DNA of 64,000 nucleotides from a virus: positions 47,991 through 111,990 of the IMG/VR virus record IMGVR_UViG_3300047160_006886. The stretch is one strand, 5' to 3'. This document shows positions 4,660-29,441 of the stretch, piece after piece; the stretch's first letter is position 1; each line of letters starts with the position of its first letter. A program made the position numbers and the translations under genes. Under the pieces are notes generated by a model. That model made no database searches and had not been told where the DNA came from. It saw nothing but the letters and a program-made list of their open reading frames with translations.

Positions 4660-5103
4660 CTACAGTGCCACCCTCAGCGGTGTCATGTCCAGGTGCCTGC
4701 CTCCCTGCATCGCATGATCCTGCTTCTCTCGCATCTCCTCTCGCAGCTCCCGTTCCATCGTTCGGACGGCCTTTGACACCCCTCCGTCGATGACCGTCTC
4801 TGGATCAAGTGGAGTAGCTATGCCCTTCCCTTTGCCGGTGCTGATCCTGTCTGTCGGCCTGTCCGTCCTGCCGAACACCCCTCGATGGTACAGCATCCTG
4901 ACCACGTGGCGGAACAGACCCCAGAGCAGTGTGGGAGGCAGGGATGAAATGGCCTTCAGCAGATCCTCGAACTGAGCATCATCGCTTCCATCCGTCGGTT
5001 CCCTGCCCCGCATTCCCACACCCTGGGTGTGAGGGACCGACGAATGGACGACGGGAATGTGTTCGAATACTTGCTTCTCTCGGGCGTGTTCGAGGAACGC
5101 CAT
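4660..5103 (-). CDS. Hypothetical protein
   Basis: AGGAG RBS and a TATAAT ~30 nt upstream; first gene of the terminase block. Confidence 0.55.
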   Translation of the reverse strand: MAFLEHAREKQVFEHIPVVHSSVPHTQGVGMRGREPTDGSDDAQFEDLLKAISSLPPTLLWGLFRHVVRMLYHRGVFGRTDRPTDRISTGKGKGIATPLDPETVIDGGVSKAVRTMERELREEMREKQDHAMQGGRHLDMTPLRVAL

Positions 5104-19060: not shown

Positions 19061-19353
19061 GTGTCAGCCCTCGATTTCTTCTTGCTCCTTCTCCTGCCAT
19101 TCGTGCGGAACGGCATTTGGCTCACTCGCACGACCAGTCCGATGTTGATGTCACTGATCCGCACGAACAGACCCCGATCACTCGCCTCGCCTCTGATCTG
19201 CTGAGCCATCGAAGTCTGAGAGCAAAGGTAGTCTCGGCCGGCCATCACCCGGAACTCCGGCTGGGAGAACCACGTCTTCCAGTCGTACAGCTCTGGACGG
19301 CCTCGATGTCGTCTCTTGTTTTGTGTCGGTCCCGCCTCTTCGCCTTTTTCCAT
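19057..19353 (-). CDS. Small basic putative DNA-binding protein
   Basis: RGRPELYDW motif; first gene of the leftward block; TAAAAT 6 nt before ATG suggests a leaderless start. Confidence 0.55.
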   Translation of the reverse strand: MEKGEEAGPTQNKRRHRGRPELYDWKTWFSQPEFRVMAGRDYLCSQTSMAQQIRGEASDRGLFVRISDINIGLVVRVSQMPFRTNGRRRSKKKSRADT

Positions 19354-19475
19354 GATCTCATTTTATTCGATTTCCCCGGAAATCCGGGGAAAAACTAATT
19401 AGAAAAATTTTCCCAGAATTCCGTTTTTTCCTCTTTACTTCGGCGAATAAGTTTATTACCTTAATAGGTAGATTG
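19354..19475. promoter_or_regulatory. Divergent promoter region
   Basis: AT-rich; hairpin TTTCCCCGGA-AA-TCCGGGGAAA; rightward TTTACT-17-TACCTT; leftward TAAAAT. Confidence 0.55.
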
Positions 19476-19710
19476 ATCATTGACAACCGACCGCAGAACC
19501 GGACGACGGCCAGCCCAGGACGGGCAAGACGAAGGCGTGCACCGGGACGCAGCGGGGGGATCGGAGGGGGATGACCCAAACCGATCCCGGCAGACCTGGC
19601 AGAACCAGGAAGTCATCCGAGTCACGCAGATCGAAAGATCGTCAGTGCTACCCTGGAACGGTTTGAAACAGGCGGAAGCCGAGACCGGGTCCATCCCCAA
19701 GCCGCGTGGC

Positions 19711-19798
19711 TAGAACCTAAACCAACCTGCTCGATCATCTTGGAGCCATCCGAGAGGCAGCCCGTCCCAAGTCGGGAAGCAATGGTGAGGGGGTTCTA
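19711..19798 (+). ncRNA. Twister ribozyme, type P1
   Basis: P1 UAGAACC/GGUUCUA, UAA, P2 ACCA/UGGU, P4 CCCG-UCCCAAGU-CGGG, GAGGG; T1 CCC/GGG and T2 AC/GU pairings. Confidence 0.85.
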
Positions 19799-19812
19799 AC
19801 CTGGAGAGAATC

Positions 19813-20115
19813 ATGGGGTATCTACAGAATGCGATGACTGTTGGTCAACTGCGAAAAGAACTTGAAGGACTGCCGGATGACGCCGTGGTCCTCTACGTCT
19901 GCGATTACGGCGATCACTGCCACACGCAGCAAGCCCTGCCCATCTCTGAAATCGCCGACCTCGGATGCGACGAGCGGATCGAAGAGTCGGCGTACAGCAG
20001 CTCTGGCCTCTGCCTCTTAACCATCAATGATGAAGACGAGGATGACGACGAGGACAGCGAAAAGGAAACCGAAGAGGAAGAGACCGAAGACCGGAACTAC
20101 ATCATCCTGCGTTAG
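19813..20115 (+). CDS. Acidic hypothetical protein
   Basis: GGAGAG RBS; MTVGQLRKELEGLPDD phage-type motif. Confidence 0.65.
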   Translation: MGYLQNAMTVGQLRKELEGLPDDAVVLYVCDYGDHCHTQQALPISEIADLGCDERIEESAYSSSGLCLLTINDEDEDDDEDSEKETEEEETEDRNYIILR

Positions 20116-20223
20116 CGAACTAACAGCGGGGTCTAGGATCGATCATCCGAACACCGGACTCTCCAGACCGGCCCGACCCCGCTTCTTTCTTTCTGGAGTC
20201 TCAACCCTTTACTGGAGAAAGCC

Positions 20224-26538: not shown

Positions 26539-26583
26539 CACGGCACTGTCATCCGTGAGAGGACCAGCCGCTCTTCAGGCTGG
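26539..26583 (+). ncRNA. Hairpin plus H-type pseudoknot motif, copy A
   Basis: Same architecture as 26832-26876 with covarying stems. Confidence 0.6.
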
Positions 26584-26600
26584 ACTGTAAGGAAAGTGAA

Positions 26601-26831
26601 ATGAAAATCCTATTAGAGCCGCTGTTAGACTGGATCACCAGCAACGTCTATGACAGCGGGCACGGTTTGTTGGGTCCGCCCAGTTGGGTGATCGATGCCG
26701 AGACCATCTTGGACAAGCTAAGGGAGCTGGCCGGTATATCCAAACACGAAATGACTGTGGCTTATGACCAGGCAAGAATCCGAGTACATGGAAGAAACGT
26801 TGATGGGGGAACCTACCTCGACGAGAACTGA
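26601..26831 (+). CDS. Hypothetical protein (lower GC)
   Basis: AAGGA RBS. Confidence 0.55.
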   Translation: MKILLEPLLDWITSNVYDSGHGLLGPPSWVIDAETILDKLRELAGISKHEMTVAYDQARIRVHGRNVDGGTYLDEN

Positions 26832-26876
26832 CTGGGCAGCGTCATCCCAGACACGAGCGAGCGGTGTTCAGCTCGC
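26832..26876 (+). ncRNA. Hairpin plus H-type pseudoknot motif, copy B
   Basis: Covarying copy of 26539-26583. Confidence 0.6.
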
Positions 26877-26894
26877 ACAGTCAGGAGTTCAATC

Positions 26895-29441
26895 ATGAAA
26901 GCCAAAGACATCAAGCAAGGCCACCACTACGAAACGAAGATCGGCGGCAAGCTGACAGTCGTAAAAGTAGATCGGATCAACGAGGAGCGAGAGCCAACGC
27001 TGGGCACCAACCGCTCCCGGAAGACCGGGAAGATGACTTTTGAGGTCACCAACCTCTCAACCGGCCGCAAGACCACGTTCCGGTCGGCGGCGAAGTTCCG
27101 TCGGGAGGCCACCCCCGGCAGCCTCGTCATGGAGCATGAAAACAAACGCATCAAGAGATTGCAGGAGCAAGTTGCCGAGAAGGTCATCCGCCCGACCATC
27201 GACAAGCTAGTCGAGCAAGGAGTCCTGCCGAAGCCCACCGGCGAGGTAAAGATCGAGTACCCCAATGTCCCTTTCGCCGAGCGGGAGGCGAGACCCCCAG
27301 CGAAATCGTCGAGCGACACTCCAGGCTCCACGGCACGCTCCAGCCGCTCGACCCCACCTTCGTCCGGAACTCAGTCGACAGCAAGGACAACCGCTGCTGG
27401 TGTGAACATTGCTCAGCCGCACGGCAGCCGAGAGAATCCCGGCAGCAGCGACGAGATCGAGAGCACCGAGAACAGCTCCAGCGAGGCTACCGAATCCTCG
27501 CCGGCGAGGCCGCTGACCCACCAGCAGGTCAAGGCGATATTCGACGCGGTGGACAAGACCGAGTTGCTCAAGAAGGTCCGCTCGACAAACGATCCGACTC
27601 CCCTCTCGCTTCAGCAGTGCCAGGAGGTTGTGATGAGCGAACAGGAGGAGGTGCTCAAGATCATGAGAGAGACCAGGGGCAAGCCGGAGTTGCGAGACAA
27701 GAAGCTGCGGGAGCTGGCCAACCGACACAACCGTGGTGGAAGGAGATCGCAGACCAACACGCTGAGTGCTCCCGACGAAGCCTCAAGCCACCACACAGGA
27801 CTGACTTCCGAAACATCTCCTTTGACCCTTCCCTCGTCACCGGCAGATGCAGATGTCGAGCCTGCCGGGAAGGAGTCAACAACGGCTACCGACCCAGCAT
27901 CACAGCAACCCCAACTGACCCCGACGAGGGAGAAGGATGCCCCGGTAGTTGAGAACCTGAAGGAGACGCTCCAGCGGGCAATCAACCAGGTGACCGAGAC
28001 GATTCCTGAAGCCGCCGGTCTCCAGGGCGATCAGCCGCAGGCATTCATCGACCTGACTACTAAGATCAGCGATGGCAAGCGGGTCGTGGTGCTGTGTGGC
28101 TTCGCCGGCACGGGCAAGACCGTGCTGCTGACTCGGATCGCCCGCTGGGCCAAGCGGCAGAAGTACGATGTGAAAATCGCCGCCCCGACCCACAAAGCAG
28201 CATCGGTCATTTCTCAGAAACTCGCTTCGTCCGGACCCGGTGGAACCGACATCGAGGTCCGCACGATTCATTCGATGCTCGGCTTGAGGCTGGAGCCGGA
28301 TTACGAGTCCGACTCCGGCGGTCACATCCTGACTGCCCAGGACAGCAAGTCCAAGGTGAAGACCGGCCTGGTGATTTGTGACGAAGCGTCGATGGTCGGT
28401 GAAGTCCTCAAAGACCACATCGAGAAGTCGAGCAGCGACATCATCTGGGTATTCGTAGGGGATTTAGCTCAGCTCCCGCCGGTCGGCGAGAGCATCAGCG
28501 AACTCCTGGACGAGCCGGATGCGGTGCTGGAGAACGTGCTCCGCCAGGCCCAGGGATCGGAGATCCTGAACCTGGCGACCCGCATCCGCAAGGGTGACAT
28601 GAGCATGAAGCACAAGAAGGGCAAGGACGTATTCGAGGTCGCCGATGCCGAGCAGCTGTTCCAGGCCGCTCTGACCAAGTTCCGGGACCCGGCCTACCAG
28701 AAAGACCCGTCGTTCGCACGGATGCTGGTCTTCAAGAACGCAAGGCGGCAGGCCATCAACGCCCGGATGCGAGACCTGCTGGTCGGCTCCCAGCAGCCTT
28801 ATGAGCCGGGCGAGTGGCTGGTCATGTACCAGCAGTTCGCTCCGGAGAAGTCGCGGCTCAATCTCATGGCCGAGGAGGCGAAGAAGTTTCCGAAGGGCGA
28901 CCGCAGACGCGGCCCGGCCTGGAAGCGGTTCTTCGACTACCAGCGGCAGCTCGGCGAGTCGGTGTCAATGCTCCATGTCAGCGAGGAGGTCCGCGTGGTA
29001 GCGGTCTCCGAACGGGATGTCGATATCGACGACTACACATTCGGCGTCTGGAGCCTGACCGTCCGGACCAAGGACGACCAGGAATACGTCCTGCCGGTAC
29101 TCAAGGACGAGGAGCGGGAGCGTCACTCGAAGGCCCTGGCGACCATCATGGCCAAGGCCCAGGAATATCGAGCCGAGCGGGATGAGTGCCCGAAGGGGTC
29201 GCCTGACTGGATTGATTGGGACGAGAAGCGGAAGAAGGAGTGGGGCCGCTATTTCGGCATGGAGTCCACGTTCGCTCAAGTGGACTACTGCTACTGCATG
29301 ACCACCCACAAGAGCCAGGGGTCCACGTTCGATCATGTGTTCGTCGATGTCCCCGACTTGATGTCGAGCGGCGGCATGCAACAACGAATCCTTTACACGT
29401 CGGTTACACGACCGGCGAAAAGCCTGACCTTTTACAAGTGA
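26895..29441 (+). CDS. Dda/RecD-like SF1B helicase with long N-terminal extension
   Basis: GFAGTGKT, APTHKAA, DEASMV, VGDLAQLPPV, THKSQGST, YTSVTR. Confidence 0.9.
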   Translation: MKAKDIKQGHHYETKIGGKLTVVKVDRINEEREPTLGTNRSRKTGKMTFEVTNLSTGRKTTFRSAAKFRREATPGSLVMEHENKRIKRLQEQVAEKVIRPTIDKLVEQGVLPKPTGEVKIEYPNVPFAEREARPPAKSSSDTPGSTARSSRSTPPSSGTQSTARTTAAGVNIAQPHGSRENPGSSDEIESTENSSSEATESSPARPLTHQQVKAIFDAVDKTELLKKVRSTNDPTPLSLQQCQEVVMSEQEEVLKIMRETRGKPELRDKKLRELANRHNRGGRRSQTNTLSAPDEASSHHTGLTSETSPLTLPSSPADADVEPAGKESTTATDPASQQPQLTPTREKDAPVVENLKETLQRAINQVTETIPEAAGLQGDQPQAFIDLTTKISDGKRVVVLCGFAGTGKTVLLTRIARWAKRQKYDVKIAAPTHKAASVISQKLASSGPGGTDIEVRTIHSMLGLRLEPDYESDSGGHILTAQDSKSKVKTGLVICDEASMVGEVLKDHIEKSSSDIIWVFVGDLAQLPPVGESISELLDEPDAVLENVLRQAQGSEILNLATRIRKGDMSMKHKKGKDVFEVADAEQLFQAALTKFRDPAYQKDPSFARMLVFKNARRQAINARMRDLLVGSQQPYEPGEWLVMYQQFAPEKSRLNLMAEEAKKFPKGDRRRGPAWKRFFDYQRQLGESVSMLHVSEEVRVVAVSERDVDIDDYTFGVWSLTVRTKDDQEYVLPVLKDEERERHSKALATIMAKAQEYRAERDECPKGSPDWIDWDEKRKKEWGRYFGMESTFAQVDYCYCMTTHKSQGSTFDHVFVDVPDLMSSGGMQQRILYTSVTRPAKSLTFYK

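Follow-up and report, generated by a model that had tools for sequence, protein, structure and literature searches.

Twister ribozymes are a class of self-cleaving RNAs whose predicted members number in the thousands; for the bacterial representatives an association with phages has been noted, and mRNA processing has been suggested as the role (PMC6765202). The cleavage position of the family is established, as are the A that serves as general acid and the G that serves as general base (PMC6154101), and the reaction leaves a 2',3'-cyclic phosphate and a 5'-OH (PMC6154101, PMC11662667). When ~1,950 candidates were tested, natural twisters without core imperfections had an average cleaved fraction of 0.76 (PMC11662667). 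The closest described system to the locus presented here is the type-P1 twister, Rfam family RF03160, for example Osa-1-4 from Oryza sativa (PDB 4OJI), with which our comparison follows the work of Roth et al. 2014 to the extent that it is reviewed (PMC6154101, PMC6765202). Like these RNAs, our element has its ends in P1 and contains UAA, P2, P4, the L4 loop UCCCAAGY, GAGGG with the catalytic G, and two pseudoknots, T1 (CCC/GGG) and the 2-bp T2. It also has the optional P3 found in 78% of annotated twisters (PMC6154101). The type-P5 and type-P3 twisters (RF02684, clan CL00120) share the catalytic core and pseudoknots, and some viral type-P5 copies (L006, L014) even carry a P4/L4 16-mer identical to ours; they are, however, circular permutations in which a loop closes P1, whereas P1 is open here. 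The twister-sister ribozyme (RF02681), whose P4 terminal-loop sequence is similar, has neither the double pseudoknot nor the UAA/GAGGG core (PMC6154101). Since our element has both, it is a twister proper and a twister-sister identity was rejected.

The DNA analysed, which we call the window, is a 64,000-nt stretch from the right-hand end of a 111,990-nt IMG/VR record that is an estimated 93% complete; all coordinates are those of the window. On its plus strand, positions 19711–19798 hold an 88-nt type-P1 twister with a 7-bp P1, identified with RF03160, with our own covariance model R1 and from the minimum free energy (MFE) fold. We conclude that, very likely, an uncultured phage of 112 kb has here a functional self-cleaving ribozyme, placed in the 5' leader of its rightward (replication-region) operon. 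The 5' strand of P1, UAGAACC (19711–19717), pairs with GGUUCUA (19792–19798), and P1 covaries across the 98 distinct viral twisters listed in this work. Next comes UAA (U19718, A19719, A19720), and then the P2 5' strand ACCA (19721–19724), whose partner is UGGU (19783–19786). The AC at 19725–19726 is the 5' half of T2 (PK1), forming the pairs A19725-U19772 and C19726-G19771. As judged by folding, the extended P3 (19727–19760) consists of a 5-bp base (CUGCU/GGCAG), a one-sided 6-nt bulge, a 7-bp upper stem and a GCCA loop. P4 (19761–19776) pairs CCCG (19761–19764) with CGGG (19773–19776) around the L4 loop UCCCAAGU (19765–19772), and in both covariance models C19766–C19768 of this loop pair with G19789–G19791 to make T1 (PK2). 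The 3' linker of L2, AAGCAA (19777–19782), ends in a conserved AA. The GAGGG at 19787–19791 (conserved columns 104–108 of alignment A2) provides the GGG partner of T1 and, at the foot of P2, G19787, which corresponds to the general-base guanine (PMC6154101).

The preliminary description, made from the sequence, had listed P1, UAA, P2, an extended P3, P4 and GAGGG, and all of them were found at the coordinates it gave; T1, which it had called intact, is indeed complete, and the columns of its pairs show covariation among the aligned viral copies. The helices follow the order 5'-P1-P2-P3-P4-P2'-P1'-3' with 17 of 17 nested model pairs formed, and the MFE structure of the isolated 88-mer is exactly this set of nested helices. 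In the window row of alignment A2, 22 of 22 model pairs read as formed, T1 and T2 included, and all catalytic and pseudoknot nucleotides are intact. The predicted scissile bond, U19718/A19719 (19718–19719), had been placed there in the preliminary description as well; both covariance models align these two nucleotides to the U-A of the conserved UAA, so that cleavage, predicted from sequence, would take place at this step.

Type-P1 twister identity had been proposed together with a search using the Rfam twister-P1 model. Under E-value thresholds, RF03160 matched the site over its full length (model positions 1–68 of 68) at 42.2 bits, with E-values of 3.1e-8 for the 301 nt local sequence, 6.7e-6 for the 64-kb window and 2.7e-9 for the whole genome. 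At Rfam gathering thresholds no match was returned in the whole window, as the site does not reach the RF03160 gathering score of 67.2, a curation threshold and not a biological feature. Among 23 other sampled viral type-P1 twisters, which range from 35 to 73 bits, three reach this score and 20 miss it; the window's Rfam score lies near the bottom of that range. Because 20 of the 23 sampled copies were missed, routine Rfam annotation probably under-counts twisters in phage genomes, with most phage copies likely overlooked at default settings.

A model built from viral sequences gave a stronger match. A descriptor-pattern scan of viral contigs for type-P1 twisters listed at least 100 matches; 59 distinct viral copies with intact P1 and P2 among the matches listed, with the window left out, make up alignment A1, from which the covariance model R1 was built. 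R1 scored the window site at 56.3 bits (E = 8e-13), its sole match in the entire phage genome and the two related loci searched with it. Over 100 listed loci, R1 detected 132 twisters (98 distinct) at 27–76 bits, among which the window is lower-middle. Both the RF03160 alignment and the R1 match support the identity and topology first proposed. No other ribozyme was found with Rfam at E ≤ 1 in the window or the remaining 48 kb, nor did the whole-window scan return any Rfam family at E ≤ 1 in rightward-operon spacers, including window 26539–26886.

The fold and the family membership can also be read from comparison across viruses. In the family alignment of 98 listed distinct sequences, 93% of paired cells hold standard pairs, against 67% when shuffled, and in slid controls the paired share collapses to 31–45%. 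Twenty of the 22 pairs change on both sides among the 98 listed distinct viral sequences, pseudoknots included. The window is identical in 21 of the 23 columns that are at least 90% conserved, and the two divergent columns together make up the first P2 pair, U-A in the family and A-U here, a form common to six distinct A2 sequences with the window counted. The core nucleotides of the family, among them U..AAG in L4 and the AA ahead of the P2 3' strand, are present. A GC-rich hairpin region might in principle fit a twister descriptor by chance, and such a reading could draw on the score below the Rfam gathering value and on the P4/L4 16-mer CCCGTCCCAAGTCGGG, which occurs exactly in 18 viral contigs, some of them real twisters and several, by eye, non-twister contexts, so that the 16-mer alone is not diagnostic. 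With E-values of 6.7e-6 to 8e-13, none of the 22 pairs and no conserved unpaired nucleotide missing, and a typical position ahead of a ribosome site, the chance of this is negligible; the R1 match, the pairing, the covariation and the conserved columns effectively refute it.

The T2 pair had been singled out as covaried. A19725-U19772 with C19726-G19771 is a genuine compensatory form, but it is not special. The pair at the position of A19725-U19772 is G-C in 79, A-U in 18 and unpaired in one of the 98 listed distinct viral type-P1 twisters, and a regex parse, which matches these listed counts, gave 50 G/C, 12 A/U, one mismatch and no G/U. A published twister search descriptor has 'NC' on this side of T2 (PMC11662667). 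The A-U pair is an ordinary, common minority form.

Relative to RF03160, the window copy thus has A-U/C-G for G-C/C-G in T2 (as do 18% of the listed viral copies), a flipped first P2 pair, a bulged P3 of 34 nt, an L2 linker of AAGCAA instead of gUAAA, and 42 bits against 67.2. The AC/GU form of T2 combined with an AGCAA-type linker is common to the window and the twisters of L046, L082 and L147, AGCAA(A)-type linkers recurring in these three, and the 6-nt linker is inside the observed range of 2–11 nt in the listed sample. The P3 region is the longest in that sample (others 5–32 nt, median 18), and total element length ties the maximum; long P3 stems are also present in the viral copies of L033, L035 and L086.

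Judged from its sequence, the ribozyme is very probably active. Flanking sequence is able to inhibit twisters co-transcriptionally, according to a reference cited in PMC11662667, and it is conceivable, if highly unlikely, that the element is a true twister by descent which, within the transcript it naturally belongs to, has no activity or is strongly inhibited, either as a relic or as a conditionally active switch. The cause could be misfolding induced by the G-rich upstream leader or interference from the long bulged P3. This possibility draws on the unconstrained MFE structure of the full leader, in which the ribozyme fold (P1/P2) is absent, as well as on the length of P3, the low Rfam score and the lack of a conserved orthologue among relatives and in pattern scans. 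However, every catalytic and pseudoknot nucleotide is intact, and the full leader, when constrained to contain the ribozyme fold, lies no more than 3.2 kcal/mol from the MFE with the five pseudoknot pairs uncredited. Since the forced fold costs only 3.2 kcal/mol before pseudoknot energy is counted, the leader is not a strong competitor. The order of transcription, moreover, favours folding of the leader on itself first, the long P3 has its counterparts in L033, L035 and L086, and an extended P3 may stabilise a 2-bp pseudoknot (PMC11662667). An active ribozyme is the most probable state of the element.

The twister is located in the gap between two divergent gene sets. On the minus strand, leftward genes encode an AAA_24 ATPase, a PD-(D/E)XK exonuclease, a Holliday-junction resolvase and a small protein whose gene ends at 19353. 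On the plus strand, rightward genes comprise 19813–20115, small ORFs, a DUF6011 protein gene and an SF1 helicase gene (26895–29441). The 459-nt gap starts with an AT-rich part (19354–19480) followed by a GC-rich leader of ~230 nt. The AT-rich divergent stretch, delimited as 19354–19479, has a GC content of 0.34–0.46 versus 0.60 for the window and is likely the promoter region of both operons. The ribozyme had been described as standing at the head of a rightward early operon. The orientation fits, with minus-strand genes, checked from position ~14.5 kb, up to 19353 and plus-strand genes from 19813 onwards, as does the AT-rich part of the gap, but a sigma-70 promoter scan found no promoter or consensus in the divergent region. 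Because no sigma-70-type promoter was found, the position at the head of the operon rests on gene orientation. The AT-rich region also contains a perfect 9-bp inverted repeat, TTTCCCCGG-AAAT-CCGGGGAAA (19371–19392), which is a possible operator or hairpin. The leftward gene at 19353 has its start codon 18 nt from this repeat, which lies upstream of it.

The GC-rich leader that the predicted cut would release (19480–19710, plus strand) is probably non-coding. An ORF at 19480–19713, whose UAG stop codon coincides with the first three nucleotides of P1, was rejected as a real gene and treated as non-coding, as it has neither homologue nor family and only weak codon-position bias. The leader was likewise rejected as an exceptionally structured RNA, its folding energy being z = -0.8 relative to shuffles. 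It has no Rfam match, and no similar DNA was found in 50,697 phage records or the related loci. The cut might serve the upstream product, by defining the 3' end of a discrete ~240-nt leader RNA (19470/80–19718) with a function of its own. A probably non-coding, GC-rich leader located behind an AT-rich putative promoter region would suit such an RNA, but its folding is no more stable than that of shuffles, neither Rfam nor the DNA searches provide a counterpart, and across phages twisters associate with a downstream start codon. On balance a leader RNA is an unlikely purpose of the cut, and we favour a role on the mRNA side.

The preliminary description had noted that P1 ends a few nucleotides ahead of a ribosome-binding site, and this is accurate: P1 ends at 19798, the Shine-Dalgarno sequence GGAGAG of the first rightward gene (19803–19808, plus strand) begins 5 nt past P1, and the ATG is at 19813, 14 nt past P1 and 16 nt past the end of the model. 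The gene itself (19813–20115, plus strand) encodes 100 aa with an acidic tail and has a fitting GC3 frame signal, no Pfam or PHROG family, and homologues with 40–50% identity in L002 and L003.

Placement ahead of a start codon is typical of phage twisters and not special to this one. A ribosome-binding site and start (of an ORF of at least 50 aa) lie within 40 nt downstream of 49% of the 98 listed distinct viral copies, against 15% of random positions drawn from the same loci. In L015, L034, L046, L082, L103, L114, L123 and ~90 others, as in the window, a single ribozyme stands ahead of a small gene and ends a few to ~30 nt before the ribosome site and start. Many of these phage contigs have several copies between co-directional genes, several of them behind a hairpin; the window differs in having one copy, a divergent leader and no upstream plus-strand gene. 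That viral twisters precede members of one gene family was considered and rejected, the 53 downstream ORFs in the listed loci being mostly singletons, small and mutually unrelated. Several twisters occur within a few kb in many viral contigs (eight in L102, seven of type P5 in L006, and others in L115, L040, L081 and elsewhere), and a tRNA gene is found ~250–400 nt from the twister in L042, L065, L097 and L092.

Related phages were reached through three flanking genes, and none of the 25 loci obtained in total contains a type-P1 twister. R1 found no type-P1 twister, and Rfam no twister-clan match, in L002 and L003, the loci with homologues of gene 19813. The same holds for type-P1 twisters in the 23 loci L124–L146, which contain homologues of the Holliday-junction resolvase or DUF6011 gene. 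No match for an orthologous copy came from searching the DNA of 50,697 phage records, a P2-specific pattern returned only the unrelated L114 among viral contigs, and a subfamily pattern run on metagenomes returned one unrelated twister (L147) and no orthologue. Since no orthologue is present in the relatives found, the window copy offers no lineage-specific conservation or covariation. Its distribution is sporadic, which fits gain and loss of ribozyme modules.

Other features were seen in two of these relatives. At ~2300–2440 of L002, upstream of the homologue of gene 19813 and so in the position where the window has its twister, a motif like CCUAUGACCCNNCUAGU...GGCAGGC is present two to three times, and no Rfam match was found for it. 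L128 is syntenic, with the exonuclease and resolvase genes on the minus strand and the DUF6011 gene on the plus strand, and lacks both the twister and gene 19813. Its plus strand has a sub-threshold Hammerhead_II match (4732–4797; 33.6 bits versus a gathering score of 37) that contains CUGACGAG and GAAAC, ~300 nt past the DUF6011 gene. From its sequence this is likely a hammerhead, in which case the same operon may be served by another kind of ribozyme.

Downstream of gene 19813, at 20126–20196 on the plus strand, the Rfam model for int-alpA RNA (RF02996) gave a near-threshold match (32.4 bits versus a gathering score of 35.8; E = 4e-5 local, 0.008 per window). The match spans the full model and lies 10 nt past the stop codon of 19813–20115. 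Its closing stem, GC-rich and 8 bp long, encloses two hairpins; CUAG and CGAA are conserved, and a U-rich tail follows. For the gene, this RNA could form a 3' boundary resembling a terminator. We put forward, as a tentative and rather doubtful proposal, that a small self-contained cassette was inserted at the operon head, with the twister as its 5' boundary. The parts of this possible cassette would be the ribozyme, the acidic-tailed 100-aa gene 19813–20115, and the int-alpA-like three-way-junction RNA with its U-rich tail (20126–20196). In L128, the divergent region is followed directly by the DUF6011 gene, the likely hammerhead being elsewhere in the operon.

In the mechanism that we propose, the 88-nt element would fold as P1-P2-P3-P4 in the emerging transcript and be locked by the pseudoknots T1 and T2. 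By analogy with the family, the 2'-OH of U19718 would attack the next phosphate, with A19719 as general acid and G19787 as general base. Cleavage would fall between U19718 and A19719, the ~240-nt leader would depart with a 2',3'-cyclic phosphate, and the mRNA would then start with a 5'-OH at A19719. Its 5' end would be a compact 80-nt ribozyme fold placed 4 nt before the Shine-Dalgarno sequence of gene 19813. The cleavage, the transcription start and an effect on expression are what we infer for this locus, in addition to the observed fold and family. Engineered ribozyme insulators in 5' UTRs, such as the synthetic, hammerhead-based RiboJ, place a self-cleaving ribozyme upstream of the ribosome site, which removes the variable leader and leaves a structured 5'-OH end. 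The window element, natural and known from sequence alone, resembles them in its placement just upstream of the ribosome site, and by this analogy its mRNA may acquire a 5' end that is defined, does not depend on the leader and probably resists nucleases. The idea of a switch masking the ribosome site was rejected, as the predicted accessibility of that site is similar in the uncut and the cut RNA; with no clear change in accessibility on cleavage, an effect on translation is unsupported by folding.

Taken alone, the element adds one more phage twister to a known class, in an arrangement that many uncultured phages share. If the cassette proposal were true, the ribozyme would be a portable insulator that allows a newly acquired gene to be expressed independently of the leader in which it lands, and this would give a concrete role to phage twisters. 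With one copy, structurally perfect, whose end lies 4 nt ahead of a ribosome site in a divergent-promoter leader, the locus provides a test case for whether 5'-leader removal by a natural ribozyme alters mRNA stability or translation.
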